Source: Neophaeotheca triangularis (Eukaryota). Taken from it: DNA of 61,503 nucleotides. The notes beneath the pieces are model-generated. The model searched no databases and was not told where the DNA came from. It saw only the letters and a list, made by a program, of their open reading frames with translations. A program made the translations under genes and the position numbers. Location: the NCBI GenBank assembly GCA_054600435.1, contig BAAIJX010000034.1, forward strand, positions 186,001 through 247,503, read 5' to 3'. Below, piece by piece: positions 5,319 through 61,503 of this stretch (its first letter is position 1; each line of letters begins with the position of its first letter).

Positions 5319-5430
5319 TTTATCTTCGCAACTCGCCGATCCCCCACTTTGGATGCATGTGTTGTATGATAAAGCTATCAGTAGAATGCAGCTGCCGTAA
5401 GGTTTGCGGGGCTCCTTATCTTTATTATCT
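5319..5430. promoter_or_regulatory. Cluster of GATA (HGATAR) sites and CreA-like SYGGRG sites in the shared IDCase/T7H promoter
   Basis: GATA cores at ~5319-5325 (rev), 5367-5372, 5375-5380 (rev), 5415-5421 (rev), 5425-5430 (rev). GCGGGG at 5406-5411 and CCCCAC at 5342-5347. Confidence 0.4.
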
Positions 5431-5563
5431 TTAGGACGGGGAGCTTCAAAAAAGCTACCAGGGGCGGTTGTTTGATTCTGTGCTCACCTTTTCTTACTAC
5501 CTGGTGTCTACCTACCATAGAAGAAAAGTCATACGAAGCACTTCAAGCCTCTTTCGAGCAAAA

Positions 5564-6667: not shown

Positions 6668-6716
6668 GACCAGACGGCTTGATTTTGTGGAGGCTGAAGG
6701 GCGGGTGAAGTGGTTT

Positions 6717-6742
6717 TGAATGAATGAATGAATGAATGAATG
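6717..6742 (+). repeat. (TGAA)n microsatellite
   Basis: tgaatgaatgaatgaatgaatgaatg downstream of T7H. Confidence 0.85.
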
Positions 6743-8697
6743 GATCTATTGGTTAAATTGGCTAACAACCACCTATTACATTGATGAAGCAGCGGCTGGC
6801 ATCCTTTATTTCATTTTCACATGCTCGAGAATGGACTACTACCTAGATAGTACCAAGGCACTGCCCCGCCTCCCCCCGCGTTTCTACCAAAGTTGCAACC
6901 GCCGATAACGGCCCCGTCCGTTGGAATTTTTGCACTGTGTTCCAAAGCCGATGATAGCCAGACATGGAGCCAAATTAAGGGGGAAGTTTACGACGAGTGC
7001 GCGTACTGGACGGTACCTAGAGTGATGAAAACGAGACGTACATGATAATAATAACTACATCTACCAGTCATCAGGACAGTCATCAGCACGTGTCAAGATG
7101 TGTCTGTCGTGCTTTATGAATACTACTAGTAGGTATTCACCGATTTTGTTGAGCCAAGGAGATGCTCGATCAATGTCCACGTTAGGTACCTCCTCGGAAT
7201 GGAATCGAAGGGACCAGACCTTTCTCCTTTCTCCACGTAACGCCCGTGTTGGATTGTGGAGATGGATGGATTGTTCGGGGAACTAGAAGGCCACATGACA
7301 TGGACGAGAATTGAGAGTAGTACACAGTGTGACAGTTAACCTAGGTAGTGAGGCGTCACAGTGTGGTGATGATGGACGCCGTCATCGGAGAGACTGTCCA
7401 GGATATCATGTCCCTTTGTAGCTACTTACCTACCTTACCTAGGTAGAAAACCTGACTTGTCTAGCCCTTACAAGATGATTACGACACAACGACGCAAAAG
7501 AAAATACAAAAAAAAAAAAGAGGGCACGTGTAGCTCGATTGATTAACTAATTGATCCGACACCGGCTACGACTGTCGTTCTAGGTCTAGCGCGTGTGTTT
7601 TGAGAAAGCCGCGTACGAATCTATTCGGACGTCGTCGAAGCCATATAGGCCTACCCACCTAGGTAGTAGTATACTTATTACGGAGGCTAGGTAGGAGGTA
7701 GAGTTTCCTCTCTCGATCAATACTTCCGCCGCCGGACTACCTAGGAATAATTTACTACTGTACTACTGTCCGACTGTGATGAGACGCCGTGGACCGTAGT
7801 CCCGGTGGAGTCCTGGACCGGGACTCTTCGAGTCTTGCCCCGGAGGTACTCCGCAAAAAGGTACTCAAATCCCCGATGCTACCTGGCTACATACCTACAT
7901 ACCTAGCTAGCCTACTTGTAGTATCTGCATCTTAAGAGGGCAAAAACTCTAGCCAAGCTCCCCTACCGGAACAAGACGTGTAACTGTAGGTAAGGTCTAG
8001 GAAAAAAGGAGCATTTTGTTATTGAAATTTCGAGACCTTCTAGACTGCTTGAATAATGTATTTCATTGATATTATTCCATTGATATTCGAGTCATCCGTT
8101 TATTATTACGCCATCATATCCACCCCGTGTTCGCTTCAAAAACGTCGGGTGGTTGAGTCTGCGCGCCCTACCTAAGTATGTCGCTGCAGACTCTTCCGGA
8201 CCTTCCATTGCCCGCATTCATCATTAGGTATTGAATTAGGTATTTGTTACCACCTGATTATTACTACTAGAGGTACCTTCCCGTGTTACTATTTACTTAC
8301 CGCTATTGCTGCTCTTGTTGATTTTGTTGACTTCCATGTGTCCACCTTGATCACTACTTTACCTTACCTACCTTATTACCTCCACCTTACATACCTTCCT
8401 TACCTTAGTACTCCTCGAGGTACCTCCATCTCCTACCATCACTCTGCCTTTCCTTGTCTCTTCCACCAACAGGCAATGTTTGCTGCTCTCAATCTCTACA
8501 AATCCCATCTGAACCAGCACCGAACAAACTCTTGACAGGAAGAGAAAGAGACAAAGAAGAGAGAGAGAAAGAGAGAGAGATAGAGAGAGCTTGTTATTAC
8601 CCCGCCATTTGCGCCGTCGCCTATTTAAACAATCGCTAGAGAGCGGAAAACTCGCCAATTTTGCTGCAAACCTGGAAATCCCCAGAAAATCTGCACA

Positions 8698-33856: not shown

Positions 33857-35240
33857 ATGAGCGTGCAAACCACTCCCTCGAAGAAGGTTAGTCTATGACG
33901 CTGCCGCCACGCTTCGAAGAACCACCTACTGACACGCTTTCTTAGGCCGCATCCGCCCTTGACAACTTCAAGATGGAGTCGCCCGCGAAGAAAGAGAACA
34001 TTGATACCGTTGCCGACAAGGAGAACGTCCTCGACGCGCGTTACCAGTCGGACGAGGTCGCCATCCCCATCAAGGGTATCCCAATGGTCGAGGAGACGAA
34101 AGAGGAGGTCGCGTCTACTGGGGTAGCACCTACAATCAAGGCTTCCGAGGCGGAGGAGCCTTTGCTACAAGAGAACCCGAACCGATTCGTGCTCTTCCCC
34201 ATCAAGTACCACGAGGTAAGTCTTCATCGACGCGTCGAGACGCGTAAAGCACCCTGAAACACGAACACGCGCTAACGCTCAGATAGATCTGGCAAATGTA
34301 CAAGAAGGCCGAAGCATCCTTCTGGACAGCAGAAGAGATTGATCTGTCCAAGGACCTCCACGACTGGAACAAGAGACTTAGTGATGACGAGCGTTTCTTT
34401 GTTTCCCACGTCCTCGCCTTCTTCGCTGCATCTGATGGTATTGTCAATGAGAACCTGGTCGAGCGCTTCAGCGGCGAGGTGCAAATCCCCGAAGCTCGCT
34501 GCTTCTACGGCTTCCAGATCATGATGGAGAACATCCACTCCGAAACATACTCCCTGCTCATCGACACATACATCAGCGAGTCGGCGCAGCGCAAATACCT
34601 CTTCAATGCCATTGACAACATCCCCTGCATCCGCAAGAAGGCTGACTGGGCTCTCCGCTGGATCAGCGACAAGAACAGCACCTTTGCTTGCCGTCTCATC
34701 GCCTTCGCTGCCGTGGAGGGCATCTTCTTTTCCGGCTCCTTCGCTGCCATCTTCTGGCTCAAGAAGCGTGGTCTGATGCCTGGCCTTACTTTCTCCAACG
34801 AGCTCATTTCCCGCGACGAGGGCATGCATACTGACTTCGCCTGCCTGCTCTTCTCCCACCTCAACAACAAGCCAAGCAAGGAGCTCGTCGAGTCCATCAT
34901 CACCGAGGCCGTCGGCATTGAGCAAGAATTCTTGACCGACGCCCTCCCCTGCGCGCTCCTCGGCATGAACTCCAAGCTCATGTGCCAGTACATCGAGTTT
35001 GTCGCCGATCGCCTCCTTCTCGCACTTGGAAACAACAAGTTCTACAACTCCACCAACCCCTTCGACTTCATGGAGAACATCTCGCTTGGCGGCAAGACTA
35101 ACTTCTTCGAGAAGCGTGTTGGTGACTACCAAAAGGCCGGTGTCATGGAGGCTCAAAAGAAGGCGCAAGACAAGCACGACGGTGTCACCGCAGCGCCCGC
35201 CAACATGACTGGTGACTTCGCTTTCGACGAGGACTTTTAG
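33857..35240 (+). CDS. RNR2: Ribonucleoside-diphosphate reductase small subunit; exons 33857-33886, 33946-34215, 34287-35240
   Basis: [81 protein letters not shown]-terminal FAFDEDF. Confidence 0.98.
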
Positions 35241-39215: not shown

Positions 39216-39798
39216 GTTGGTTTTCTAGGTAGGGGTCTGGCGTTCTTGGGAAGGTGGTTTGGGTTAAGGGTCCTGGATATGTGGGTACACGGGTTGGTTC
39301 AAGGCTCTTTCTTGTGGCATTCGTTGGCCGTGGTCGGGGCTGGAGGGTCACAGAACTGGGCGGGAGGCGAATTGCGTAGATCTGAAGTATCAAGACCTAT
39401 ACTGCTGTCATTCGACAGATATCCTGCGCTAGATGCAACGCTCGCCGTCCGTTGCGGCTTAACGCAAGACACGCTTTGTCAGTCTTTTACTCGTCTGCTT
39501 ATGCCGCGCAAGTTTGGCTAATTGTCATCCTAAAAGACGTCCCCTAGTCTGCTCTGCCCTTCCTTTTGATAGATCCTGAATTGTCTTCAATTCAAGTATG
39601 GTGTCGTTGTTGCTGACAAAGGGTTAGGGTTTGGTTTGGTCCTTGGATGCGCTACGCTAGCGGCTGGCTGCAGCGAGGGCGACGGCGAAATCTTGGCGAG
39701 AGGCTTTCGAACCTCCGAACTTTTTTGATCTTATCGCATAGCTTTTGTAGCTTGCACATTGCATTTGCCAACGGTTTCGATATCCACCAAACTGCACC

Positions 39799-41095
39799 AT
39801 GGCCAAAGGCAGCAAGCTCAAGTCTATGCTGGATAATTACAAAGGTGTAGACCACAAGCTTGAAAAACAGAGAAAGCAGGAAAAGGAAGCGGAGAAGCGC
39901 AAGCGCAGTCGCAAGCAGAGCGATGTCGATCTCGATGCTCTCGAGGCCGCAGTAGCTGGCGTGGAGAAAGGGGAGGCTGCTAAAGCCAAGGCGAACGGCG
40001 GAAAGCAGAAGAAGAAGGAAGCCGCTGCCGCAGAGGCCGCAGAGAAGCTTGCAAAGACCACGGACGGGGAAGCTGGAGGCTGGGAAACGGACGAAAGTAG
40101 TGATGCTGAAGAGGAAGATGGTGGTGTAGATTTCGAGGGCATAGACGACTCAGACTCGGATTCAGATGAAGAGCAGGACCTGCAAAACAGCTCCGACGAC
40201 GAAGAGGGCGAGGATGAGGACGACATACCGCTTTCGGATATTGAATCATTGGCCTCCGAAGACAAGGGCGATGTGATTCCTCACCAACGTCTCACAATCA
40301 ACAACACAGCTGCGCTCGAGCGATCTCTCAAGTCATTTGCTCTGCCCAAATCGCTACCCTTCTCTGCCACGCAAGCAGTCCTCGCGTCAGAGCCCACCAA
40401 GATCACCGACGCCGAAGACGACTTGAGCCGCGAATCCGCTTTCCTCGAGCAAGCACTCAATGCCGCCAAGGAGGCGCGGTCGAAGCTCAGCAGCGAGGGT
40501 GTGCCTTTCAGCCGACCAAACGATTACTTTGCCGAAATGGTCAAGTCAGAGGAACAGATGGGCAAGGTGCGGGCGAAGATGGTCGATGAGGCTGCGAGGA
40601 AGAAGGCGAGCTCAGACGCCAGGAGACAGAGGGATCTCAAGAAGTTTGGCAAGCAAGTGCAAGTCGCGAAGATGCAGGAGAGAGACAAGGCCAAGAGGGA
40701 GACGCTAGACAAGATTAACTTGTTGAAGAGGAGTAAGTTTTTTACCTACTTCAGCGCTGATCATGTTGCTTCTAGAGTAGTTTTGCTAATATATTCCAAC
40801 AGAACGACAAGGCGCCGACGTCGGCGCGGCAAACGAGAACGACATGTTCGACATTGGGCTCGAAGAGGAAACGGAGAAGCCCGGTGAGGACCGTCGTCGC
40901 GCTTCCAAGGGCGATCGCGAAGCCGGCGGCCGTAACAGCAAGCGTCAGAAGAAGGACGACAAGTTTGGCTTTGGTGGTAAGAAGCGGTTCGCAAAGAGCA
41001 ACGATGCGAAATCCGCGAGCGACATGCGTGGGTTTTCACAAAAGAAGATGAAGGGTAAGCCGAGGCCAGGGAAGAGCAAGAGGGCGAAGGCGTAG
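39799..41095 (+). CDS. EBP2: rRNA-processing protein Ebp2; exons 39799-40732, 40803-41095
   Basis: PHQRLTINNTAAL, DDLSRESAFLEQA, PFSRPNDYFAEMVKS, RDLKKFGKQVQV, KFGFGGKKR, RPGKSKR; GTAAGT..GCTAAT..CAG intron. Confidence 0.96.
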
Positions 41096-42289: not shown

Positions 42290-43584
42290 AGCGTCAACTT
42301 CATTCTCGGCTGTACCATGCCTGTCAAGATGCTCCAACAACACGCTACCACCAGACACATCGCCGAGCTCAAGGCACCTCAGCCAAGTAGATGCGTGCGG
42401 CACTGCCAGCCGCAGGCGAATCAATCTCTGCTCCATACTTTGTCGGCATTCCTTACAATTTTCGTTCGAAAACTTTGGACGAAGTTCTCAGCAAGGGAGG
42501 TAGCAAGGACGACTGCGAACTCCCGCCGAACAATGACAAGATATACAACATCGAGTTCTCCCAGCTCCCAAAGGGCGAGCGCCAGAGACGAAGCACCCGA
42601 TGACTGCCAAGGTCTGGTACACCCTCGAGAGATTTGGCAACATCAAGAATGACAAGGTGAGGGGCGATCGTCTTTTCGAAAGCGATGTCTTCTACGACCA
42701 GGTCAATCGACTGAGTGTTGAGCTCGAATCGCTGGAACTTCAGGACGAGCCCTTGGAAGGCAAGAGAACGGAACACTCAATCTATGCTCCGTTGAGCGCA
42801 GACTTGGACGGAGACCGCATGATACTCGAAGTCAGCCTCATGCCACTGCACAAGACGCTGATGGCTGCATTTAACTCCATCAACGAGCTTGGCTGGCCAC
42901 CAAAAAGCATGGCCTTCACCATTGTCGTGCTCGCCATTTCTGCAATGTCGCTAGGCTGCAAAGTGCCGGCTGCAATTCTCAAAGACTTCAAGGACATGGT
43001 CGCTGTAGTGGAACGCTACTGTGACGAGAAAAATATCAGCAACGCCGCCAAAGCGCAATTGTCTGACCTTCCGGAAGACCTACAGAGCTTTCAGGCTGGC
43101 CGCGTATACAACTTCAATGCCAAGCCTCACCCTCGAGCTCGCACGGGTACCTACGCTATCGATCCGGACGATACACCATTCCGCGACTCCTCGATGCCAA
43201 TTCACCTGCGCGTCCGTAGTGACATAAAACTCGCGGCGGAGCTCACGAAGGCCTTCGATTGGGATAAGAACGACGGTGGCATTGGTATTAACAAGCTGGT
43301 AGGCAGATTGGCAAGGCTCTTGGAGAAGACAATAAGCGAGCGACTTCTTGATGGCGTTCTTGAACGCGGCCGTCAAGTACCCAGGGTACGTCTGCAGTCA
43401 CTGCGGCGCAAAAGAGAAAGCGGGGAGGGAGGGGAAGGCCAGGGAAGGAGACGGCCAGGTTACGAGTCAAGCTCTCAAGGCATGTGCTCGGTACCAAAAG
43501 GCCAGATACTGCGGTACCGAGTGTCAAATGAAGCACTGGGAGTTCCACAGGGCTCTCTGCGTCAAGCCCAATAAAATGGCTTGA
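42290..43584 (+). pseudogene. Decayed copies 2 and 3 of the MGAWG/MYND family; copy 3 (42600-43584) ends in a frameshifted MYND zinc finger
   Basis: Copy 2: ILGCTMP..SAK*MRAAL..YNFRSKTLDEVL. Copy 3: RGDRLFESDVFYD..SAMSLGCKVP..AKAQL..YNF, then in another frame CSHCG..LKACARYQKARYCGTECQMKHWEFHRALC (MYND with one Cys replaced by Tyr). Confidence 0.7.
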
Positions 43585-46089: not shown

Positions 46090-47013
46090 TAACGCTTCGC
46101 TGCCCCTACCTGCTAAGTTGACGTGGCAGCGTGATTGCAGATTGAAAGAGGTCGCAGCATTAGATGGGAAATCGTAGCTGCGCATTAACGGGCGGTGTAT
46201 AGAGCTTGACGGCGCAATCACACTGCCGGTAATGCTAGTCGTTATAGCCATAAGTCGTCTCATTGTACAGACAAATGGGGGCAAACGAAGGGCGTCTTAA
46301 TAGACGGTCGATGCCCCAGCCTTTACAGCGCACAAGCTTGAGCGCGGATCATGAGAGCTTGTAGCTTTAGGCATAAGGTCGGTAGATCGATCGCTCTCGA
46401 TCGTGAGTGGTGACTCTGAGAGATCACTAACGAACGGGTCTGTGAGAAGAACGAGTCCGATATTAAAGCGGGATGAAGGACGTTCTGGCGGTCGCAGTGG
46501 TATATGTTGACTTCAGAGAGTCGAGACATAGGTTCCTGGAGAGATTGTTTGGCGACCATCCTTTGCTAGTGGACACTCTGGAAGCGATTCTGCCTAAGTT
46601 TGAATTCAGGGTCTTGATCTCTGCTGACGCGGAGCACAAGCTTGATCAACCGTGCGTTGGCACGACAACGGCGCGAGATTGGCTTTCTGCGCGGTGCGGT
46701 ACAGTTGTCGATCACGCTAAAGAGCGGAGAAGAGGTCATGACTACTAAGCGCACCCTGACTTGCACTGCTTAGCACAACTCGCAATTCTCCATGCCGCAA
46801 CCGAGCTACTTGCCCCTCTATCTAGGTTGGCCTATACCGTGACAGTGCGAAGTCGCCTTAGTGATGCTACATCTTCTGCCCTGGAAGCCGCAGGTCCTAG
46901 CATAGCGTCCTGACAGCTGGGGTGTACTGAGCAGGCATATCTAGTGCTTTTCTCATCGCGGTAACCCGTCCCGTCCAGTCCACTGCCACAGCAGGCGTTA
47001 GTGTCCTAGCACA

Positions 47014-49212
47014 ATGGCTGGTCGCAGCGCATCCGACTACGAAGCCTTGCTCCAAGAGCTCGAAGAAGCACGGCAGGGGCAGAAGCGCGCGGAAGGACAA
47101 CAGCGACAGGCGGAAGAGCAACAGCGACAGGCGGAAGAGCAACAGCGACAGGCGGAAGAGCAACAGCGACAGGCGGAAGAAGAACGTGAACAAGCGAGAG
47201 AGCGGACCCGGGAAACGACCTTCGACGAATACATAGCCGCTTGTCATTCGCTACTGTGCGAGCCTTTGCGAGCCGCATGCCCGTCTCGCTCTACGAAAGG
47301 CAGCATTCCTGCGCCAACTGGAAAGTACTGCCCCACCAGGTTTCGCGAATGGACTGATTTTGCCGCTCAGCAAACCGAGGTGTACGACACTGTCCGCAGC
47401 TACTTGCAGCCCACCGAAGTGGATGCACCGCGGCTGTTCTCTCCTCTCCTCGCATTGCAAGACCTTGGACGAAGGCTGTGCTCACGACCCCTCAGCAGTG
47501 AAAAGGACCTGGAAGGAGTGGAGCGTTATGGAAAGGATGTTCATGTCCAAGATATCATCTCTGCGCTCTGTAAAGACCCTCATGCTCGTGAAGAACTGCG
47601 ACTTGGTAACGGCTTTCGCTTCGACAGTCACGCAAACGCCCTGGACGAAGAGGCTGCTGAAGCTCGCGAGAGAGACACAACATCAGGGAAGATGCAACCT
47701 GACCAATTCTGCGTACACCGCTTGGATGGGGATTCGAGCTCGTTGTTGATGACGGTGGAATATAAGCCACCGCACAAGTTGTCCACGCAGAACTTGTGTG
47801 CCGGCCTGCGACCCACGAACTTCTGGGAAGAGGTGGTCAGTTCTGAGGTCATTCCTACGGATGGGACAGAAAGACTCAGATACAACGCGGCACGGCTGAC
47901 CGGAGCTGCGATGGTGCAAGAATATCATGTGATGATACAAGAAGGGTTGGCATACTCCTGTCTATCCACCGGGATAGCGTAGGTTTTTCTCCATGTGCCG
48001 GAAGATGACCCGACCACGTTATACTATCATCTCTGCGTGCCGAACAAAGATGTAGAATCTGTGGGTAAAGGGAGCTTTCTACAGCCCGTGACCGCCGTTG
48101 CCAGGTTGCTGTGCCTCGGTCTGATGAGCTGCGCGACGCCTCTGCGGAGTAACGCATGGCGGAACAGGGCCAAGGATGCTGTACATGTCTGGGAGACAAA
48201 CTTCGAGCACGCACGATCGCAGATACCCGACGAGCAGCTGTACCAGACACCACCAGGTTCGGAATATGTACCCTCATCACCGATTGCATCTCCAGAATAA
48301 GGAGTTCGTCGACGCAACACCCGCTCGCACCCTGCCTGCACACCTTCACCAAGCGTGTTGCTAGACTGAAATGACTCCTCGGACTCCTCAGACTCGGACC
48401 TGAATGTCACCGCACGCCGCCATAAGCGGAACTACAGCCAAATAGCCTCGTCACTACCGCAGCCCAAAGCCCAAGAGGCTATGACATCGCGGCAGACTGG
48501 AGGACATCAAAAAAAGCACGAGGCCTCGACATTCTGTACTCAAAGGTGCTTATTCGGCCTCAAACATGATTTACTCCTGGATGATGTTTGTCCCAACGTC
48601 TCGAAGCATCGCAGGGGTCAACAAACTGACAAACACCTGGTGACACTTGCCGAAATGGTACATAACTTTAAGCAGCAGCTTGACGAGGATGTAGATTCTC
48701 ATTGCGAACCATCTGGGGAGTGCGGTAGGACTGGAGCTCTGTTCAAACTCCATTACGAGTTACACGGATACACGTTTGTCGGTAAAGGGACCACATCGGG
48801 CCTTTGGCACATCGTCTCTCGCGAGGCGAATTTCTACCAGATCCTCAGCAACGCGCAGGGCTCCGCCGTCCCTGTATTTCTCGGAGCCGTCGACATGGCG
48901 TAAAGCTACTTCCTACATGGAGCCGGCGAAATAAAGCACATGCTACTGATGGCGTGGGGAGGAGAGCCTCTCACTCAGTCGAAATGGCAAGATAAGTTCA
49001 GCGCTGTAAAGAAGTCTCACGCCATCATCCGCAAGCTTGGTGTACGTCACGGTGATGTTCGGCCTCCAAACACCTTGTGGAACTCGGAACTGAATCGCGT
49101 ACTCATAATCGACTTCCACAAGTCCCAGTTGACTAAAAGCCATACCGTGGCGCCGAAAAGGAAGCGTGAAATCGTGGACAACCCTGCGAAGCGATCACGT
49201 CTGAATGTTTGA
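47014..49212 (+). pseudogene. Full-length Spok (spore-killer-like) homologue with four premature stops and no frameshift
   Basis: Coiled-coil repeat, TTFDEYIAACH, GKYCPTRFREW, PDQF..VEYKPPHKL (PD-(D/E)xK-like nuclease), FCTQRCLFGL..CPNVSKH cysteine cluster, GALFKL..GYTFVGKGT, QGSAVPVFLG, HMLLMAWGG, HGDVRPPNTLWN..IIDF (kinase). Stops at 47980, 48298, 48367, 48901. Confidence 0.9.
47098..47181 (+). repeat. Four 21-bp tandem units encoding (QQRQAEE)4 in the Spok coiled coil
   Basis: CAACAGCGACAGGCGGAAGA(G/A) x4. Confidence 0.95.
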
Positions 49213-49214
49213 TT

Positions 49215-50270
49215 ACCACGTGCGGTTTGGATGCAATCTCCTTTGAAGTTTTTAAAATGTGCCATCAATCTTGCGCCAATTCTCCTACCCCTCTTAACTT
49301 AGCTTCACGGAAGCTTTTCCCTGTCGACTATATATCTTTGTGGGATGTCGAATCTTACCCAAGTGCATTACGGACAAGATGCGTCCCCATCCATGCCTCT
49401 GTTCTCGACCCAACTGACTCCACTTGACGCTAGGCGATCCAGATCCCCGGACGGCCCTGCCCTGCCGAAGACAGAATCTCTTGGCATCCTGATCCCGTCG
49501 TCTTCTGGCTTGTTCCCCTACGGCTCTGATCTAGTGGTTGAAAAGCTTGGGCCACGCAACTAAACGGAAATAACGCCATGAGGGTTAAGTGAGGAACTTT
49601 CAAGCAGTCCTGCTTATTTGGAATCTCCTTCTCGATGAAGAAGCTAAGAACACTCGTCATCAGAGTGTGGACAGGAAGACTAGTAAGGTCATCGAGAAGC
49701 TGAATGGCGACCTTCCAAAAAATAGGGCAGAGACAACTCGTAAGGAAGCCAGTAAGCAGGGGGCAATGGACGCCTTGAGGCACGAGAAGAAAAAGAGAAA
49801 GTGCGGCAAAAAGCTGATTGAGCAGTACAGAGCTGAGCAGGGCTCTGAATCGATTCTATTAAGCCCTGGAAAGTGAAAGCTCCTCTCGAGCTTCAGGATC
49901 AGAGGGAGCGGGAGGAAGAGCAAGAGCGAGTGGACAAAGGACATAGAGCCCAAGAAAGAGCTCTCGTAAAGGTCAGGAAGGGGCAGGAAGCTCAGAAGGG
50001 GCGTGATCAGAGTGATATAGCCCAAGCTGCTCGTGAGGCAAGAAGAGCATCGAGGACGGCTCAAAGGGAAGCAGCTAAAACAGCTAGAAAGACTTGAAAA
50101 CAGGCCGAGTTAAAGTAACTCAGAATCAGAGACTAGAGGAGAACCAAAGAAGCACAAGGCACCTGAAGAGCATGTAATGATAGAGCAACCTCTAAATGCT
50201 ATAGAGAGACCAAAGCAGCTCATATCGAGATCGGGGAGAACTATCCGGGTAGCATAGCGTCTATTGGACC
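49215..50270 (+). mobile_element. 3' relic of a pogo/Fot1-like DDE transposase
   Basis: PIHASVLD, MDALRHEKKKRKCGKKLIEQYRAEQG..LLSPGKVKA, charged helical tail and SRSGRTIR terminal motif, typical of the C-terminus of fungal pogo-like transposases; frameshifted. Confidence 0.7.
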
Positions 50271-50289
50271 AAGATCGGACTGGTCGTCT

Positions 50290-51150
50290 CGAGGGGTTAG
50301 GTAAGGAGCACAGTTCCGACTAGCGCAAGCGATTGATCCGTTGCAGCGGCCATCTTATCAATCTCGTCGCATAAGCAGTGATGTTTGGCTCAGATTCAGA
50401 CGTACTTGAAGACGAGGTCAGCGAGCGTAGTACTGCTGAAGCAGAGCTCATTATATAGCGCAAGAGTGGACCGATTTGCAAGTTCAACAACGTCGTCTGC
50501 TTCATCAACAGGTCAGACCTCTACCACCAGCGATTCATCGACCTCTGAAAACAGAGCGCCCTTCTAAGGCCTGAGGGCAAACGACAGGCATGTTACTTTG
50601 TCAAGGACACCGAAGCGCGGTCCAACAGCTTCTAGGACTCCGCCGAGAGAGCTATGTACCCACGGCCCGCTGTTAACGCGCCACTTTAGCAGATCCGCAT
50701 AGAGAATGAACGCCGGAGAGCGCAGGAGCCCATGCTATCTACGGTGACGTGCTCAACGATGACAGCTGTAGATTTTTATTCAGCTATACCAATAGATCTT
50801 GTGCCTATAAATCAAGCTACCTTCTTTCTTCAAAGGCTACTTCTTTGAGGCCACGTTGTTCGTCGATCTGGTGAGGACCTCTCGATTACTTCGAGCATAT
50901 TTGCACGCAGTATCCAAATACCATTGACGAGCTCAACACCTCTCAATCTCGCCTTGGTACCAACGTCAGTGACGCATGGTAGAAGCTGAGTAGCTTCTAC
51001 GAGCTGCTCGACGGCAGTCTAGTCTACATAGCGGCCATTGTCCTTCATTCTTGTATGAAATGGCAATGGTCCGAAAGGAGACGACCACAACGTGGAGAAT
51101 GGGTCAAGCCCGCCAGATCCGCCTTTCGCATCCCGCAGGAGGATAGATCA
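50290..51150 (+). mobile_element. hAT (Restless-like) transposase relic
   Basis: RLIRCSGHLINLVA*AVMFG..*RKSGPICKFNNVVCFINRS, FVKDTEARSNSF*DSAERA (TRWNS-like), DAW*KLSSFYELLDGSLVYIAAIVLHSCMKWQW; multiple stops and frameshifts. Confidence 0.8.
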
Positions 51151-51863
51151 TCCTCGAGTTGGGATGAGAGTAGAGATATACTCGCAAGAGGCGCTTGAAG
51201 CTGTTGGTGGCTACTGCTGATGACGTCCTCCAATTCTCATCAGAGCATGTTGCCGCTCATCGGTCTGGATTAGTGCAGTCGAACATCTCAATCTTCACGC
51301 TACCACGAGTTCTAGCGCGAGAGAGCGCAACGTATCTCAGACCGATGGGGCGTACCTTCGATGTGGGTCCTAACACAACATATGCAAGACACATTACTTA
51401 GACTTTCAGCCGTCATGGCATAGCTAAAGGTAACAGTAGACTCGTTACAAAGTCTATCAGCTAAGGGAGACCCCAGAACATCAAGCTATCTCCAGGGGTA
51501 TGCCTGCTCCTCCACAATGCTTGACACAAATCCTTCTTTTGGAATTGTGTACACGATGTCACAATCCATGGACGTCATTGTCAGGTTCGGTTTGATGAGA
51601 CCGCTGATATGGCGTTCGTATACTCAGGGCGTATGCTAGAGTTGCTGCGCTTGATTACTGTACGGGGCGGCAGCGGCTCTCGTCCGGGTCCAAGTCGTCA
51701 GCGATCCAACATTAAGTAGTCTTTGAAGAAGGGCTAAAGTGAAATGAGCTCTTTCCCTGCTAGGCTGGCAAGCAAGCTCAGGGTTGATGTAGTGTATATA
51801 GAGCCATAGTACAGGATTAACCATCCGTAATGTGCCATTGATCTGGGGCAAAAGGTTTTCGAC

Positions 51864-52309
51864 CTATTGACCCAACCAAACAACGAAGACCGTAGTCGTA
51901 GCCACAAGTACACCAAGCGCGGCAACCGCAGGCGCGAGTGCGCCTACCATGCCCAAGCTTGTAAGTGTGGCGAAAATCCCGCCCGCCGGAGTGAAGGCAC
52001 CGTATGCCCAAGCTTGGAAAGCCGCAGCTAGTGAGCCTGGAATATCATCAGCTGTCGTCGGGGTTACGTTTCACGGCACCTACTCACCAGCAGCGACGCC
52101 TGACGGGCCGAAACCGAGACATAGTACCAACGCCACCACAACAGTGAACGTTATCCACCACACAGTGATGAGCAATACGATGTCTTGAGGGCCCGTTAGC
52201 AGATCATATCTATCCACAGCAACTCACGGTCGAGGAGTTCTAGGATGACATACGAGGTTGAGAGATCCATTCTACGAAACTGTGCTCGTAGCTCGAGGAA
52301 AAGCTCCAT
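51864..52309 (-). CDS. Small hydrophobic IFI6/IFI27 (ISG12-motif)-like protein, 116 aa; exons 52309-52228, 52183-52088, 52036-51864
   Basis: Introns GTGAGT..GCTAAC..AAG (52227-52184) and GTGAGT..GCTGAT..CAG (52087-52037) give MELFLELRAQ..VLCLGFGPSGVAAGSLAAAFQAWAYGAFTPAGGIFATLTSLGMVG..VVWLGQ* with no internal stop. Not in the ORF track. Confidence 0.78.
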
Positions 52310-54488
52310 GCTGGGTTTCTCTCTGAGAGAAAGGTATGTGCTCCTGCAGTGATATTTGGTGCATCCATGAACTTCCAGTCAGCGAGTAAGATGTTTATTG
52401 GGGCCATACTGCTTGTGCGAAAGTGAATTTATTCACGTTAAAATCATGTAGGAGCAGTTGGAAAAATGAATGGGAAGTAGCAAAGCCAGGAAGAGGTTAT
52501 GGGGGTTGCATGCATTTGTATAGAGGGTGTAGGCATTATTTGTACTTCCAAACAACTATGCGTGTCGGAGCTGGAAGGGCGGCCTCGCAGGCCTGAGCTG
52601 CGCTCTTACATCTATATAGGACGTAACTCTTTGCGTGCATGAGCCGAACACCCTATGGATAGGCCAATCTGTAACATTTAATTCGCTGACTGCCACGGTG
52701 CGCTCGACTTCCAGTCTCGAAGTGGAAGAATGCAGTACAATGCGTTTTCAAGTATGTGCATGCGTGACGTGTCTCAACCACTTTTCAAAGTACGCGACAG
52801 AATGTAGGCTATACAGGCAAGCGTTCATGCACGTTTGGCCAAGATTTTCACGGGTCATCTTGTCAGGTACATGCGTTCTAGACAATACTTCTCGCTGCAC
52901 GGCAAATTAGCGTAAGCCACCTCTTGGCACTCCGGAAGTAGGCTGTAGACCAGCATGCAAGTCTTCATGTCGAGTACAGTAGCATGGGCTGTCGCTGTGA
53001 TCGAACACTGCAAATTCTCACGGCGATCTTAGCTTGTCATCCCCCTATACAGATTTACGATCACCTGGATTCATCATGAGAGCACGTGACAGAACTTTCG
53101 AGGAGATAGGATCGTACATCGTTGTAAGACTGTCACTTAGAGACATACTGGGAACGCGATCTACCTTCTTGATCAGAGTACGAAAATGCTCACTACAGCT
53201 GTCCTAGAAGAGGTTCACAATTGGATGTAGCACAAACTAGAGAGCTGACTCGATGCTCTCTAGACGGAAAGTACTAGAAATAGCTAGAAGTCTAGTGTGA
53301 TCGAATGCGCGGTTAATTTTGTACGGTTAGCTCATGATTCCGCTAGAATATTTGAAGAAGTATGCACATTGTTACTAGTTGCGTATAGTAGATCTTTATC
53401 TGGTAATACTAATGAAGCGGTAGACCGTTAGGTGTGGATTTACCGTCTACCACTATAGCGCACATAAGTAGTAATTGTACCTAACGCAACTACGTACCTA
53501 CATACTACTACTATTTAGCCTAAATTTGTTATAAATGGCTAGAAGGACTAGTATCCTAGCTTTAACGGCCTACCCTATAAGTAACGTCTTAATATAATAG
53601 TAAGGAAGAACTAGAGGTTATCGGCCTAGTACTATTATAGTAACTCCTATACTAGACTGGTTTTAGCCTAAGGGCCTTATGTGCTTACGGTACTTACTTT
53701 GTCATCACCTCCTCTATATACTTACACCTCCCTAACACTAGCACTTACATCTTAGATAGATAGATAACATACACAATAGATTCTAACTAACTAAATTAGC
53801 CCCTACTATTATGGGTTCCTCTAGCTTCCCCGTACTTCTAGAACCTAGGGCATGATGATTCGGCCTCTTAGCGTTTAGCCTCATTTTAAGGCTTCCTCCT
53901 ATAGGAAGCCTCTTCTCTTCCTTTCACTCCTTAGTGTATTATCCTTATCAAATGGGAACTCTATTAATCAGCTCGATCTTAGGCTTGTCTATAATAAGAA
54001 CATAGTATACACTTTAAGTTACCTATTAGAATGCTTTAGAAGACCTAAGTACTAACTAACATAGTCCTATGTATAGCTTATAGTATTTTTGTAAGATTTA
54101 GCTAGTATAGGGTAATCATTAGGAAGATTTTCATAGAAGCTAGCTATTACGGGCTAAACGCATGTACGTGGAATAATAGAGAACGCTCTATTAGAAGATC
54201 ACCTTAGTAGAATAGAGTAGGAAGTATTACGTGACTAGGAACGATTAATGTACTTAGCGGGATCTAGTAAATAGAGTAGATAGAGTAAATAGAGTAGTAG
54301 AGTAAGGAAAGACATATAAGTAGACACTTATTACATTATAGTTAGGAGCTTTATGCTCAACTTAGAATATAAACCCTATTATATCCTTTACCTCTACAAC
54401 CTAAATTAACTTAACGTGTAAGATATTCCTTTACCGTAGTAATAGAACAAGGAACTATAACAAAATACTATAATTAGATTACCTTAAG

Positions 54489-54731
54489 CCAAACAAATTT
54501 TAGTGAGGATTTAGGGGCTAAAAGCTAATAGGCATAGTAATTTATTTAAAAGAAGTGACTTAATTTATAATATAATCACTACTTAAATACTTCTAAAATT
54601 CTTACTGTTAATTTTTAAAGGAAGAATAAGTTTAAAACTATACTGCTAAACAAAACTACCTCTTATTACTTAAAAAACAAGTGCTATCCCTATCGGATTT
54701 TAGCCCCTAATTCTCACTAGAATTTATTTAA
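54489..54731. mobile_element. MITE-like element (~240 bp) with ~55-bp imperfect terminal inverted repeats
   Basis: Left CCAAACAAATTTTAGTGAGGATTTAGGGGCTAAAAGCTAATAGGCATAG versus reverse complement of right TTAAATAAATTCTAGTGAGAATTAGGGGCTAAAATCCGATAGGGATAG; AT-rich non-coding interior. Confidence 0.7.
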
Positions 54732-55134
54732 GTGCGGCATTTCTATTATAGTATTAGTGTTAGCGAGTGTTAGACGCCCCTAGTGTTAGGATCTCGGACT
54801 AGAGGTAAAGCTTTAGATCGAGTGTAGAGGAAGCTTCGAGCTACTCCTTAGGCGTTATAGTAAGAATAAATCATTCGCTAGAGACGCACTAAAGCTAGCC
54901 GCGGAAATTAGGACAATAAAGAAGAACCTTATGCTTAACATTTATATAATTCAACATTATCATCAATTGGGTTAACGATCCTAATCACGGTATACGACGA
55001 ACCTACATGCTAGCTAAAGTCGGTCTTCGGCGCTTAAACTACCCATACTTACTTCGCGAACGGACGACTCTCCGCCTACACTAGAGAACATCGCACGCGT
55101 TATAGCGGCGGCACCGAGTAACTGCCGACCGCAT

Positions 55135-56300
55135 ATAGCGCCTCTAAGGTCGCATTCCTCGCCTTAGGCCTACCTATGTTCGTAAACGCCATAAATGCCT
55201 CGTCGCGCTCTAGTAGCAGCTATACCTAGGTATAGTTTAGCGTGTTAGTACTAGACGTAAACATCTCCGTACTATTCATAGAAGTAGCATCATAATCGAA
55301 AGCCGCGTAGGTATGCTTTTCCTATAACGTAGCCACATTATTAGGGTATGAATGTAGTATTTAGAAACTCGAGGGGCTAAGAATCGGAGTTTGCCGACCC
55401 TAGTAGCCGTTAAGGTGTAGTTAGAGGAAGGTAGCGAAGGAAGACATGTCGTAGTGAACGCTAGCGCCTAGCTAGAGGGCTTTAGGGTTGTCGCCATGTA
55501 GTGCGTCTAGTATTATAGGTATAGGATCTCTACCTTACGCTACCGGCTCGCTATACGGCTATAGGTTATTGACCGTAGCCCTCGACGGTTCAGGCTACAC
55601 GCTAAACCTATAACGAGGCATTACGAGTCTATCGAAAAGGGCTTACATTATGGCTTACTAAGTTTGAGCCGTTTATTCTTCTAACATAGCCGCGAGGACT
55701 ACGTAGCCTACGACGCTATACTACTATGTAGATCTAGGTGTGCTAACCGGCGGATTAGATAGTGTGTCTATAGTAAAGCGATAGCGCTAATCCGTCGGCG
55801 AAGTTATGTCCTGATGGAATGTCGTCTACTAGTCGCCGTACTCGGATAGGTCGGTACTAGGCATAATGCCGGCGAAATCGGTTAGAAGTATTCTGACCGT
55901 AGCGTTAGAGTATTACTCGTAAATCGAGGACAAGCCGAATACATCGCTAACGGTAGTGTTCCAGTCTATTATGCCTTCTTTAATTACCGTTACCGTTAAG
56001 ATAGCTGTAAGCGACCTAGTAATGCCTCCGAGGTGGAATATATCACTATTCTAGGTAGTAACATCATCCCCTTGTTTATGTATACTAGTCATGGTAGAAG
56101 TTAGGCTTCCGAGTCTAACGTTTCCTATCGTAAGCGCCGGGACGTTATATCGTTAGCGTATAGTCTATAAAGCCGTAGATACTAGAACGGTAGTCTATGA
56201 CATACTTGATACGGCCGGAGAACTAGGTGTCGTTGTCGATAAGGCTGTTAATCTGTTTGTGACTATTAGTCCGGCTAATGTCTATGAAATCTCGTCATGC
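55135..56300 (-). pseudogene. RIP-inactivated beta-lactamase/serine hydrolase (class C-like) family gene
   Basis: IR*RYNVPALTIG..DIFHLGGITRSLTA..EGIIDWNTTVSDVF..YSVVGYVVLAAMLEE..LFDRLVM..GDNPKAL..LHLNG..SF*ILH..STNTLNY..ERDEAFMAFTN, with many TAG/TAA stops. End coordinates approximate. Confidence 0.75.
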
Positions 56301-57128
56301 GTTACATGCCCTATCGGTTCATCGTTACGTTTCGAAGAGACACTAACGCCTACCCTAACCCTAATAGATGCTAGTAGTACTACTACACCTACTAACCACT
56401 ATATCCGTTTCTTCTTCCATGAGCGTTTTTGGTGTGATAGGCCTATACGACACTAATCTACATCTAGTTGAATAGCTATGTTTTACTAGACTAAGTATTT
56501 CTTGTTGTCATGATTAGGTACGTTCCGCACTTAGGGTCCAAGGTGACTTTGTTCCTTAGCGAAATACGGTGGATTGACTTCAAGTGTGCTATACGACATT
56601 ATTAGGTCTACTAGGTTCGATGTAAGGACGGTCGTGAAGTCGAGCCCTCTCATAGTAGTAGAAAGAATAGTATGAGCGCGATATGTACATCAAACGAGGG
56701 ATAGGAGCGATGTTTCCCTATACTAGGAACTAGACAATGCCTTTATACGAGAATAGCTATACTTTTGTGAGGCTAAGTCGTGTAAGCCGTGTTGTTATTA
56801 TTAACTTTATTGTCGTCATCTCTACCTCCTCTAAAAAGTAGAACTAAGCGACGTGGCTTGCTTATAGCGTAGTCTCGAATAGAGCGTTATCGCTCTAAAC
56901 ATACATACTAATAGACAAGCATTAGGACAGTATCCACTTACTAATACACACAAATAGGACGTATAGATCGAACCGTCCTACATAAGGGCACGATGTAGAA
57001 GTTTAAACGTTCGAGATAGTCGGTACAATACAGATCAGCGTTCAGTCGATAATGTAGACATTAATGCTAAGGACTCTAAACATGAAACCTAGAATGTAGT
57101 ATAGTATGTCAGTAAGATATGTCGTGTA

Positions 57129-57900
57129 TGTTCCTTCGCCGATAATAGCGTGGCTGTGTAACGCGTAAAGAACACTAAAAGATTAGATAGATCGTAGTGA
57201 TAGTCTAAATGTTCAAATCGACCTACTACTTGATACGATCTGTTACCTCACGTATACTCACGAGATGACCGTTAGTCCTCTATCTTTTCCGTTACTTCGC
57301 TACATTAGGGCGTATGTCTATCTAACGAGCTGTCTTACTATAGTCCGATAAAGCACTAGTGAGTATAGAATGGCGGAACCGTACGTTGACTTTAACTAGC
57401 GTCATCTTACTATGCTAATACGTTGTACGGCGACGTATACTCGATAGTGTTTACTAGCTTGCTATTGTCGCCGTCTACACGACAAACATAGAGCCGACTA
57501 GGCTGTATTCGACCTAGTGACATGCTCCTATTAGTCTCGTCCGTGACCTTTTCGTTTAAGGCATTCGCCTGACTTTTAGACCGAAAACCTTAGCCTAGCC
57601 GAAGCCCTTCGCTAGTCGAAGTTACTTTTTACGGCGCCTTAGCGATGTCTACATCATGTCGGTCTTGACCTTAACGCTCTACACCTTTTAGGCCTTGCTT
57701 ACGGCTGTTAAATTACCCTTATAGCGATCTATTGAGATCTTAGACTACTATTAAGAGGGAAATAATAGCGGAGCGGTTTCCCCTATATATAGTAAGGAGC
57801 TACGGATAGTACTATATAGTGCCGCTCGATGAGCAGGTAAGTCGGTACACTCGCCTAATCCGAAAATTGCCGTCGGAGGATATGTAGCGATAAACTCGAT
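57129..57900 (-). pseudogene. Second, heavily RIPed and internally deleted Spok relic
   Basis: ECTDLPAHRAALYSTIRSSL..APLLF, GLKGVER*GQDRH, LRLG*GFRSKSQANALNE..RIQPSRLYVCRVDGDNSKLVNTIEYTSPYNV, FYTH*CFIGL, PNVAK*RKR*RTNGHLV, LHSHAIIGEGT. All are colinear with the 47014-49212 copy. Confidence 0.8.
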
Positions 57901-59479
57901 AGTGTCCCTTTACTTTAAACCCCTAAATCTAGCCTAACCCTACTAAGATTCATAGTAACTAAGCTAGTACTACTACTCCTATTACTACTACTTCTTCTCT
58001 ACTATTATATGTCTTGAAAACTTACTTAACTACTATTTAAAGGTCATCTAGGTACGCTAGAGTAACTCTAGGGCTTATAGTCTTACTCTTTCTACCTAGT
58101 ACCTTTCCTAATAATAGGCTCCTAGTACTACTAAGCCTCTATCCTCTTATAACTACTAGTATAGATCTAGTAGTTAGGCTATACTAGTAATACCTTTATG
58201 AAGTAGGTAGGTTAAGGCATAAGTTTATAGCAAACTAGGTAGCTAATAGATAGTAGGTAGATATAAGAGGGATTTCCCTTTGTCCTCTTTACGAGGGACG
58301 TACGTGATCCGCACGTGATACGCTCGGCTATTACAGCTATATATTAGCTATACTAGGCGCATGCTAGATTCGAGTTCCTTAAGAGATACTATATATATAA
58401 ATAGTAGACACACTTCTATCTCACGCTACTAGTTAGTATTATGCTATGTATATTCTACATTAGACAATGTACCCTTATAGTAGAACCCCCCTCCTAGGTA
58501 TAACATCATGGAGCTTTAGCTACTATAATTAGTAGATTTAGTATAATAATACTACATTACATAGCGCTCTAGAGTGTTAGTAGTAAGAATAGAGCGGTAC
58601 CCACGACATAGTATAGTATTACTACGTTAGGACTCTAGGTAAAGGGGACGGTACTAGCTAGTACACTCCTACTCCTACTAGCGTTTATAACATTAGTGAT
58701 ATCGGTTCCCCCTATAGAACTAAATACATTAATGATTTTATTAGCCATGGCTAGGTCCACGACATTATACGCATGTACATTTAGAAGCGTTTACCGACTT
58801 CTGTATTTCTAGTAGTTCCTATAGTAGTATAGGTAAATGAAGTTCCTAAGACTCTAGTATCTAGGAAACTAGTGTAAGAGTACGGGTTGTGGTCTTCCCT
58901 AAAGAGATAGGACTAATGACGATACTTAGAGGATAGGTTGTCGATGTCTAGGGCGAGTAGTAGACTATTATTAGTAAACTAAAACGTCCTCATTTATAAT
59001 CTGACTCGACGTTCTCTAAGCGCTTAACTAGCTTCTTACATAAATTGACTATGTTTAATAAAGCATTAAAGTCTTTATTTAGGAATATTCTCTTAACTTA
59101 GTCTAGGAATATGTTATATAAGGTCTTTAATACTTAGTTGTTAAGCATGTTATGTAGAGTATTGTTTATAGGGATCGTGATACTAGGTACATGTACCTAA
59201 TGTAATGATCTAGAGAATATTCCTATAGCCCGGCTAATGTTAATAAACTTCTATAAGGATTACTATAGAGGAGGCAGCCTAAGTACTTAGCTTCTATATC
59301 AGCCGTTTAGGCTAGCATAGTTATATAAACTAGCGATTAGTCTTTAAGTTAACTAAGCTTTTAGCTAAGAGGTACTATACTAGAGCTTTATCATATTAGT
59401 ATTAGCCGACTTCATTATCTAGCTCCTCTATGTTCCTTATATAGGCTCTCCTTATAGTATCCCTTAATATTTAAACTAA

Positions 59480-59617
59480 TTTTAGGTAGGATTTAGTAAA
59501 TAGAGCTTATATTTTTTCTACTTTCTCTCTTATGTTTTATTTCAATGCTTTTATTCTTAAATCCGATTATAGGTAGGATTTAGTATATAGAGCTTACATA
59601 CTTTCTACTATCTCTCG
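59480..59617 (+). repeat. ~50-bp imperfect direct repeat
   Basis: TAGGTAGGATTTAGTA(A/T)ATAGAGCTTA..TTTCTACT(T/A)TCTCTC occurs at ~59483 and ~59570. Confidence 0.7.
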
Positions 59618-61503
59618 TGCGTTTGTTTTAGCCTAATAGAGACGATTCTAGATATTTTAGTACATTTTGATATGTAACATGAATCCCGTCTCGTCTATTA
59701 CTCATAAAGACGATAATGACTAGGCGTTATCCTCTACTCTCCCTAGTCATCGAATAGGAAACTAGTAAGATATAATGTTTATGACCTTATATTATAAGAG
59801 CACTATATTCGAACTAATAACTACATATAAGATCTAGAGGATTTGTTAGGAAGGACTAACAAATATAGAATAGGATAAGGTAGGGTTAGAAGATAGGAAG
59901 GAGAAATGAGTGTAACTTTAAGATAGAGACCTTTGGCTTATACTTTTAGCGCCTTAATTATAGATCGTCTACGCTTATATAGTTATTAGCTTGACTATCT
60001 TGCTACTATCCGCTAGGCTAGATTCTACATCTTACTAATACGTTCCCTAGCCTTACCTATTAAGGGAAGTATTTTGGTTTTACCTATTATTAGTACTAGA
60101 GTTAATGTTAGCTACATAACCTCTTTTAATTAGGCATCTAGTAGCTACATATAAAACTTCCTTCATTAATACCTTTTGTTTACATTTTAGATATCTACAT
60201 AATGCAAACTAGGTAAGGTAAAGTATATAGGATTCTACTATAGAAAGAGATGACTAGTTCTAGTCGTTTTATTAGGTACGACTATAGCTTTAAGAGTACT
60301 AAGCCGCACTCGAAAACTAAGATATATATAGGACCTACTATAGGTTATTACTATAGCAAAAAGCCTCTAGATCATATTTAAGATATGCTATACTAAGTAG
60401 ACACTTCTATTTTAGCTGTTATAGTAAAACAAGTGTAGAAAAGATTAGGTAGTAATAGACATAGTCGTATATATAAGAAAGTAAAGGCTTTAGTAGTTAC
60501 TATTTTGAACGAGGAGAGGAATAGGCTTTACTTAGATATTTGTAGATACGATTGAAAAACTGAGTAAAAGAGAAGCCTAGTATATAGATAGTACCTTCAT
60601 AACTCTCTAGGAATCTCGAATAATGACTAGTCTAAGTTCTTCGAGCTATTATTAGAGGCTTAAGCGAATAAGTCTAATGTAAAAAGACTCTATAATAAGC
60701 ATTATAAGACTACCTAGCTCCTATAAACTAAAAAGTACAACTTATAACTAGAGTAGGACAATATAGTATAGTTATATAAGCAGCTTACTAATCTTAATGA
60801 GAGGATAAAAGAACGGTATAGTGCTATTAAGGAAGTTAGTAAAGTTGAAGAAATAGATTCGAGACACTTCCAAGAGATAGTTAAGAGGTAGTCTATATAA
60901 CTAGATTAACTAGTAGAAAAGCTATAGATACTTTAGTAGCATTTCGACAAATCTATAGAAGTAGATAACGGCCAATGCTCGACATCCTGTTCTTAGTATT
61001 CGTACCTTATTATTCTATCGACAAACTAGTAGCTACTAACATTATTAAAGACTAAATCCAATAGTACATCCCTTTATTAGTATCATAAAAGATTTACCTA
61101 AAGCTATATATCCTAGAACATATGTTAAGTTACTAATTAGAACTCGACTTATATGTATAGCTAACTCCCTACCTATACCTTACTAAATAACGACATATAG
61201 ATATAGCTGTATTATAAGAGTGATAATAATGTTACTTCGCTTCTAAAAATATCTTAGACTCTACTAGAATCCTATAGAGACTTGTTTCTCGAATCCTTTA
61301 AGATTAGAGATCTAGATATTCTCGAAGAGCTAACATTAACATAGGGAATAGGGGCGTAAGACAAATAGGGGTATGAGATAGTAATTTAGACTATTCAACA
61401 TTCAAAAATCTATATCTTAATAGTTATATGCTCAAATTACTTTAAATTAAAAAGAATAATACATAAGTCTATACTATTTAGTAGGATAGGTTCTAATTAT
61501 ATA

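Follow-up and report, generated by a model that had tools for sequence, protein, structure and literature searches.

A full-length Spok-family pseudogene beside an older relic of the same family in a Dothideomycete, with stop codons that ordinary mutation probably produced

Among the single-gene meiotic drivers of fungi, Spok genes are the best understood, and a link to the maintenance of Starships and accessory chromosomes has now emerged as well. To our knowledge, the death of a Spok gene is less well documented than its spread. Here we describe a member of the family that carries four internal stop codons, located on the plus strand at positions 47014–49212 (the focal gene) of a 61,503-nucleotide stretch of contig BAAIJX010000034.1. 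This stretch at its full length is referred to as the window. We argue, with a probability of roughly 0.65, that the locus is the dead copy of a Spok-type single-gene toxin–antidote element and that its stops arose by ordinary mutation rather than by repeat-induced point mutation (RIP).

The closest described systems are SPOK1–4 of Podospora (Spok2, Spok3 and Spok4 of P. anserina and Spok1 of P. comata), which are single-gene spore killers and whose order of modules, by the published description, is equal to that of the focal gene. According to the description of SPOK3 by Vogan et al. 2019 (PMC6660238), its N-terminal coiled coil corresponds to a variable nucleotide repeat and is predicted to dimerise. 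This is followed by a PD-(D/E)XK motif at 219–240, of which K240 is required for killing, by a Cys/His pattern (C-x3-C-x13-C-x5-H-x7-H), and by a kinase whose D667 is required for resistance. Two truncations are reported for Podospora Spok3: a cut after residue 490 leaves a lethal toxin without an antidote, and toxicity was lost through a stop that arose spontaneously at residue 282 (PMC6660238, PMC12693581).

The focal gene and its stops are as follows:

47014–49212, plus strand: Spok-family pseudogene of 732 codons with four internal stops and a terminal TGA, from translation and homology
47980–47982, plus strand: stop 1, TAG at residue 323, within the nuclease domain; CTG, CTT or CTA in relatives
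48298–48300, plus strand: stop 2, TAA at residue 429, in a variable linker; CAA or GAA/GAG in relatives
48367–48369, plus strand: stop 3, TGA at residue 452, in the variable linker; CGA, CGG or CTG in relatives
48901–48903, plus strand: stop 4, TAA at residue 630, in the kinase domain; CAA in five of the five loci that cover the codon

A first-pass annotation had read 732 codons in one frame, with four nonsense codons (TAG, TAA, TGA, TAA) and no frameshift, and this was confirmed by translation and by two homology comparisons. In tblastn, the intact homologue P0003 gave a single segment over 47014–49209 with 81% identity. A family hidden Markov model (HMM), built from 115 homologues with the focal sequence excluded, matched the focal translation in one stretch at positions 1–741 (1141 bits). 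Both matches run unbroken and colinear throughout, which leaves no place for a frameshift or for introns that would hide the stops. At the four stop sites, the residues of the relatives are Leu, Gln/Glu, Arg/Gln and Gln, respectively. Assembly error is argued against by contigs from two public runs, one of ~130x depth, which equal the window (0 differences over 2601 bases), although both runs may be the window's own source and are hence not independent. The frame is therefore not the uninterrupted one of a functional Spok gene: with four in-frame stops, the locus is a pseudogene member of the family. Only an N-terminal fragment of 322 residues, comprising the coiled coil, domain 1 and most of the nuclease domain, is translatable today.

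To place the gene in its family, a homologue search was run with the stops read as X. It returned 508 relatives, and 118 of the best 120 carry Pfam PF27653, which is named SPOK2_N in Pfam 38.1 (Atlas naming). The link to SPOK2_N is made via this precomputed annotation of the relatives and the family HMM; the Pfam copy that we scanned locally was without PF27653. Because SPOK2_N was missing from that copy, the local scan of the focal read-through and of two intact relatives gave only weak Kdo/Pkinase matches, besides a low-complexity Pinin match. The Kdo match of the focal kinase was weak (E 5.7e-4; 19.8 bits versus a cut-off of 21.3), and a profile made from 15 family members matched solved kinases in the PDB solely at the catalytic-loop/DFG region (Cdc7, E 1.4e-4).

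The closest relatives among the best 120 of the 508 are metagenome proteins with 81–83% identity (best 83%). Among the matches listed, proteins of Hortaea werneckii come next, at 73%, 56% and 54% identity to the focal protein, and homologues from Aspergillus, Penicillium, Talaromyces, Onygenales and Fusarium are ~50% identical to it. A quick maximum-likelihood tree, built from 42 rows of our own choosing, places the focal protein as sister to P0002 with a Shimodaira–Hasegawa-like approximate likelihood ratio test (SH-aLRT) value of 97. It lies inside a fully supported clade of 21 rows (metagenome and Hortaea) that is separate from the Eurotiomycete/Fusarium clade. No Podospora protein was found among the best 120 matches, either in the search with the focal protein or in a second search seeded with P0064 of Fusarium albosuccineum, where the best 120 were proteins of Aspergillus, Penicillium and Fusarium.

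The motifs recognised in the focal gene, with conservation scored in an alignment of 116 sequences, are:

47089–47180, plus strand: 21-bp tandem repeat, 4.4 copies with 97% matches, encoding the heptad AEEQQRQ; likened to the variable N-terminal coiled-coil repeat of SPOK3
47701–47766, plus strand: PD-(D/E)XK-type motif D230...E249-x-K251; K251 invariant, D230 and E249 at least 90% conserved
48535–48636, plus strand: Cys/His cluster C508-x3-C512-x13-C526-x5-H532-x8-H541; C512, C526, H532 and H541 invariant, C508 at least 90% conserved
48784–49116, plus strand: kinase core K591, E604, H679-G-D681, N686 and I699-D700-F701; residues at invariant or at least 90% conserved columns

The AEEQQRQ region differs in length among the homologues, as would a variable N-terminal repeat of the Spok type, and the coiled coil itself is predicted from the heptad only. 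At the level of motifs, the gene also appears to have retained the remaining modules of the family: a PD-(D/E)XK motif with its putative catalytic Lys, a Cys/His cluster, and a kinase with its putative catalytic Asp. The spacings are close to those published. The distance from D to K in the nuclease motif is 21 in both the focal gene and SPOK3, and that from K to the catalytic D is 430 in the focal gene compared to 427 in SPOK3. The last Cys/His spacer is x8 rather than the x7 published for SPOK, and the published SPOK QxxxY motif is found as QEGLAY (309–314). The earlier proposal of a full-length Spok homologue with all four modules is thus borne out by PF27653 in the relatives, by the 1141-bit HMM match and, at motif level, by the conserved residues. 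To judge from its sequence, the focal locus belongs to the Spok family as a pseudogene of full length.

How long ago the gene was lost can be gauged from the damage that it has since collected. At 150 columns with a conservation of at least 95%, in an alignment of 115 of the best 120 matches (five were omitted for length), the focal copy deviates twice: K287R, which is also seen in P0002, and P576L. Among 14 relatives checked, 13 deviate at 0–3 of these columns and one, P0021, at 14. The ratio of non-synonymous to synonymous substitution rates (dN/dS) is 0.175, 0.134 and 0.110 for the focal gene against the related loci L001, L003 and L005, and 0.159 and 0.116 for intact pairs. Its terminal branch in the tree (0.10) compares with 0.11 for the sister and a median of 0.12. 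Private substitutions, inferred for the focal gene from positions at which L001 and L003 share the same base, amount to 159 (65 non-synonymous, 94 synonymous) in the focal gene and 168 (84 and 84) in L001. Because conserved columns, dN/dS and branch length all resemble those of intact relatives, the inactivation must be young. The light mutation and recent inactivation proposed by the first-pass annotation accordingly stand. The gene appears to have been under purifying selection until recently, and its neutral phase is short relative to the distance from its nearest known relatives (dS, the synonymous distance, ~0.6), which gives a relative age only.

No intact allele was found among the public runs: those with large shares of the sequence equal the window, and the others hold diverged members of the family. 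Runs X3–X20 contain 0.05–0.11 of the focal sequence words, and the other runs of the isolate's study contain next to none, which is no proof of absence. The contigs of X3 (from another organism, coded B) and X4 (a straw metagenome) were considered as alleles of the focal gene and rejected as diverged family members. They comprise 248 and 198 contig pieces, respectively, which are 80–99% like the focal gene, and their homology runs from ~190 bp upstream of the ATG to the stop codon. We also observed that L002 (795–3014), a metagenome relative that is 99.4% identical to the intact L003 and L004, is a pseudogene too, with stops of the types GAA>TAA and CAA>TAA. L002 has two stops in 10 private changes; its intact sisters have three private changes each.

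RIP requires a similar duplicate and may leak into flanking DNA. It is usually called at thresholds of ~0.89 for TpA/ApT and ~1.03 for (CpA+TpG)/(ApC+GpT). The window contains a region of this kind, which also holds a second Spok sequence:

53001–61503, no strand assigned: AT-rich RIP block with a GC content of 37%, an abrupt start at ~53.0 kb and no open reading frame (ORF) of at least 130 codons
57199–57863, minus strand: degraded, internally deleted Spok relic within the RIP block; tblastn match to P0003 residues 148–263, E 6e-19

In the block (53.0–61.5 kb), TpA/ApT is 1.70, (CpA+TpG)/(ApC+GpT) is 0.49 and the composite RIP index (CRI) is +1.21. The odds ratios there are 0.51 for CpA, 1.55 for TpA and 1.12 for CpG. 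RIP in the host genome is thus CpA-specific, and CpG is not depleted. The Spok ORF has a TpA/ApT of 0.67, a (CpA+TpG)/(ApC+GpT) of 1.17 and a CRI of −0.50, compared to 0.79, 1.15 and −0.35 for the core region at 1–41 kb, and its odds ratios are 1.15 for CpA and 0.60 for TpA. The dinucleotide signature of RIP is therefore not found in the Spok ORF, where the indices equal those of the core genes. The 21-bp repeats, which are rich in CAA and CAG, had been described earlier as untouched, and the count of 12 CpA and 0 TpA in them agrees. Leakage of RIP from the 53-kb block into the focal gene was considered and rejected, as the intervening ~3.8 kb is of normal composition (CRI −0.36) and not RIPped.

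The relic in the block matches positions 136–249 of the family HMM (independent E value, i-E, 4e-15) and then directly positions 503–537 (i-E 0.035). Because HMM positions ~503–566 directly adjoin 136–249, the relic has an internal deletion, of ~250 codons. Compared to the focal gene, it shows 82.7% purine/pyrimidine identity over 450 nt (score 100, versus at most 30 in 10 shuffles) and 54% identity in full letters. Its transversion divergence of 17% marks it as an old and divergent paralogue rather than a recent duplicate. An early-stage Spok pseudogene and a late-stage, RIP-riddled relic thus lie side by side in one Dothideomycete locus.

The origins of the four stops were read from the codons of six related loci. 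Two are clean CAA>TAA changes (429 and 630), one is a CpG transition (452), and the remaining one (323), where relatives have Leu, needs a T>A transversion. At codon 323, the middle base is T in 220.2 of 220.2 depth units in X3 and in 146.5 of 168.9 in X4; the first base of codon 630 is C in all the X3 and X4 contigs that cover the site. This base comparison of run contigs took in 40 of the 883 differing places, with positions 48298 and 48367 lying outside those 40. Three stops had been called compatible with CpA>TpA changes. This is formally correct for the focal sequence taken alone, but against the codons of the relatives only the two TAA stops are clean. Among the private GC>AT transitions, 16 of 75 in the focal gene lie in a CpA/TpG context, compared to 12 of 60 in the intact L001. 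Lineage-specific changes are therefore not dominated by CpA/TpG transitions, and the focal share is no higher than that of L001. We also noted that a CpG context accounts for 25 of the 75 transitions in the focal gene and for 20 of the 60 in L001, which suggests that CpG sites are hypermutable in these lineages, irrespective of RIP.

On the reading that we prefer, the element would have consisted of an N-terminal coiled coil, a PD-(D/E)XK-like nuclease as the putative poison, a Cys/His cluster and a Kdo-like kinase as the putative antidote. It lies at the edge of an island degraded by transposons and RIP, which also contains the older relic. Four substitutions, probably three C>T transitions (two in CAA and one in CGA) and a T>A transversion in a Leu codon, would then have made the stops by ordinary spontaneous mutation, once selection on the driver had been lost. 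By analogy with the Podospora Spok3 cut after residue 490, an expressed allele with no stop other than those at 429, 452 or 630 would be self-poisoning. For this reason, the stop at 323, or a prior silencing of the gene, probably preceded the downstream stops. The stop at 323 is also the one that a simple RIP transition does not explain. A more specific version holds that the toxin–antidote layout forces the 323 stop to come first, and that the indel-free, missense-poor pattern of nonsense changes would reflect repeated selection against leaky toxic nuclease products. The two stops among 10 private changes in L002, against three changes in its intact sisters, may be cited as an independent parallel. 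We regard this ordered disarmament as rather improbable; if true, it would make the focal locus a snapshot of a host lineage killing a driver.

Several observations weigh against ordinary mutation, and most of them bear on the contrary proposal, that a transient duplication of the Spok unit exposed it to light RIP over one or a few sexual cycles, leaving a handful of C>T/G>A changes that included the stops, and that the partner was later lost or degraded. CpA-specific RIP has clearly been at work in this genome, 3.8 kb from the focal gene, where it has degraded the second Spok sequence of the window. Clean CAA>TAA changes explain two stops, and the 248 and 198 pieces in X3 and X4 show that relatives carry the family in multiple copies. 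Damage that is rich in nonsense, without indels and with few missense changes is also the kind that RIP produces. GC>AT exceeds AT>GC modestly among the private transitions of the focal gene (75:43, compared to 60:56 in L001). Four stops, no indel and scant damage at conserved columns amount to more nonsense than neutral decay predicts. Only ~4% of random substitutions in the ORF would yield a stop, whereas a RIP-type change at the remaining CpA/TpG sites would do so in 53 of 312 cases (17%). In a rough Poisson estimate, three further stops together with at most two conserved-column changes have a joint probability of ~0.02, and the stop count alone reaches ~0.1 at best. Two of the stops would be accounted for by a very light RIP episode of ~12 changes, which the composition indices would not register. 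Ascertainment may account for part of the nonsense-rich pattern, since a reading made without tools recognises only in-frame pseudogenes. As to the identity of the element, the link to the Podospora SPOKs is an indirect one, made through SPOK2_N in relatives of 81–83% identity and through published descriptions.

Light RIP nevertheless seems unlikely to us. The ORF indices (0.67 and 1.17, with CpA odds of 1.15) are those of core genes, all 12 of the 12 CpA sites in the repeat are intact, and the CpA/TpG share of private transitions equals that of the control. The TGA stop arose at a CpG, a dinucleotide that is not depleted in the RIP block (odds 1.12), and the TAG stop demands a transversion at a base that reads T in the relatives. 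The DNA between the focal gene and the block is not RIPped. No obvious partner was seen either: the relic, with 17% transversions, is too divergent to have been a recent one, and in X2, the isolate run that matches the window, only the focal copy was found at a likeness of at least 80%. This search covered the X2 contig set and not the whole genome, so paralogues of less than 80% identity or outside the contigs may exist, which again counts against our reading. Silencing by RIP, which the first-pass annotation had attributed to host genome defence, is therefore not borne out: core-like indices, 16/75 versus 12/60, a CpG stop, a transversion stop and the lack of a partner at 80% or more in the X2 contigs all speak against it.

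Two further explanations would leave the locus with a function. The 322-residue N-terminal ORF (47014–47979) might still be expressed, as a weak nuclease or as a coiled-coil partner that hinders incoming Spoks. It still has its start codon, preceded by the conserved upstream region, as well as the coiled-coil repeat and D230/E249/K251, and the dimerisation predicted for the SPOK3 coiled coil (PMC6660238) would suit such a role. We consider this very unlikely, as the sole RNA run contains 0.05 of the focal sequence words, the Podospora Spok3 stopped at 282 lost its toxicity (PMC6660238), and conservation downstream of the first stop equals that upstream, with no sign of selection on the fragment only. 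Even harder to credit is a gene that still works because its stops are edited in the sexual stage (adenosine to inosine), read through, intronic or mere sequencing errors. Restorative editing of stops is described from sexual tissue of Sordariomycetes (Fusarium, Neurospora; PMC11156358, PMC10776026), and nanopore errors gave false stops in Fusarium Spoks (PMC12693581). However, only one of the four stops would be a UAG; an edited UAA becomes UGA and is still a stop, and a G at −1, as in UGA, is disfavoured (PMC11156358). Predicted local folds pair the A of the TAG, and a hairpin loop is found at one of the four stops compared to 40 of 68 background TA sites. The same review reports no such editing from the one Eurotiomycete or the one Leotiomycete examined, and makes no mention of Dothideomycetes (PMC11156358). 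The relatives have no Trp at the four stop sites, the colinear alignment through each stop excludes introns, and the ~130x contigs equal the window. A dead Spok copy, stopped by ordinary mutation, thus continues to fit the locus best.

The surroundings of the focal gene contain the following features:

1–41000, no strand assigned: housekeeping genes, comprising DNA ligase 4 (909–3881), an amidohydrolase, a 2OG-Fe(II) oxygenase, an LDB19 arrestin and an Arm-repeat protein
1–41000, no strand assigned: housekeeping genes, continued, comprising a TLC-domain (TRAM/LAG1/CLN8) protein, ribonucleotide reductase small chain (34287–35237), a WD40 protein and Ebp2 (39751–40884)
43336–43581, plus strand: zf-MYND finger (E 8.8e-9), the one Pfam match in a cluster of ORFs (42.5–46.3 kb) that separates the core genes from the Spok unit
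46344–47013, plus strand: upstream region common to relatives by blastn, a putative promoter or 5′ untranslated region of the Spok unit

The best matches of the DNA ligase 4 ORF are from Meristemomyces (70%) and from Oleoguttula, Vermiconidia and Hortaea (69–70%), with one further sequence at 84%. These matches at 69–70% to Teratosphaeriaceae-type Dothideomycetes support the suggestion, made when the DNA was first read, of a probable Dothideomycete, and place the host in the Mycosphaerellales within that class. Because 1–41 kb carries housekeeping genes, the Spok locus lies where core genes give way to a repeat island. In blastn, 46707–49170 matched L001 at 82%, and 46344–46580 (85%) and 46616–46686 (83%) matched L005. 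Homology to the six loci L001–L006 comprises the coding region and 0.3–0.7 kb upstream and stops at the stop codon, and the flanks differ from locus to locus. A repeat search of 41–61.5 kb found no terminal repeats bounding the Spok unit. The ORFs scanned for a Starship captain (DUF3435), a set that leaves aside the RIP block, included none. Plain Pfam scans of ORFs at 41–61.5 kb gave zf-MYND only.

Downstream of the focal gene, the plus strand at ~50200–52500 is ridden with stops and frameshifts and contains motifs (...RCSGHLINLV..., ...GPICKFNNVV... and ...VYIAAIVLH...) that we take, as an unconfirmed assignment, to be those of a fungal hAT transposase. Pfam gave 0 families in three read-through frames of 49.9–52.9 kb. 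In L001, a retroelement with RVT_1 and RNase_H domains (4272–6754, minus strand) lies just downstream of the intact Spok gene, and is a further example of a Spok-family member adjoining a transposon.

Among the papers listed by a literature search on Spok and Dothideomycetes, none is a study of the family in that class, as judged by title. The locus also carries a caution: nonsense codons that look RIP-like and lie near a RIP block do not by themselves speak for RIP, for which a compositional or comparative signature is needed. That apart, this is the expected sort of pseudogene, the product of ordinary decay in a selfish Spok family.

Compared to the described systems, the focal gene shares with the Podospora Spoks an intronless coding region, an upstream region kept between copies and an association with transposons. 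It differs from SPOK1–4 in its Dothideomycete host and in being a broken copy, and it is known here from sequence only. The Spok homologues of Fusarium (FuSpoks), which are carried by accessory chromosomes and Starships, belong to the same Pfam family and have the same conserved catalytic residues at ~50% identity (P0064). Some of them are reported to act as toxin and antidote in yeast (PMC12693581), and a spok gene is reported to stabilise a dispensable chromosome (bioRxiv 2026.10.04.756499). In contrast to the FuSpoks on Starships and accessory chromosomes, the focal gene has housekeeping genes on one side, and no captain or Starship boundary was identified in the window.

Pseudogenised Spoks are already known. 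In P. anserina they include SpokPsi1, which lies in a degraded Spok block (PMC6660238, PMC8092012), and for Fusarium it is stated that such copies "exist in many genomes" (PMC12693581). What the focal locus adds is a Spok pseudogene at an early stage of decay, accompanied by a late-stage relic, in the Dothideomycetes. SpokPsi1, as described, resembles it in having premature stops and degraded, transposon-bearing surroundings. However, SpokPsi1 is without its 5′ end and has a DNA-transposon insertion, whereas the focal copy is full-length with four point changes, and so represents an earlier stage of decay. By the same comparison, it is the relic at 57.2–57.9 kb that resembles the late stage.

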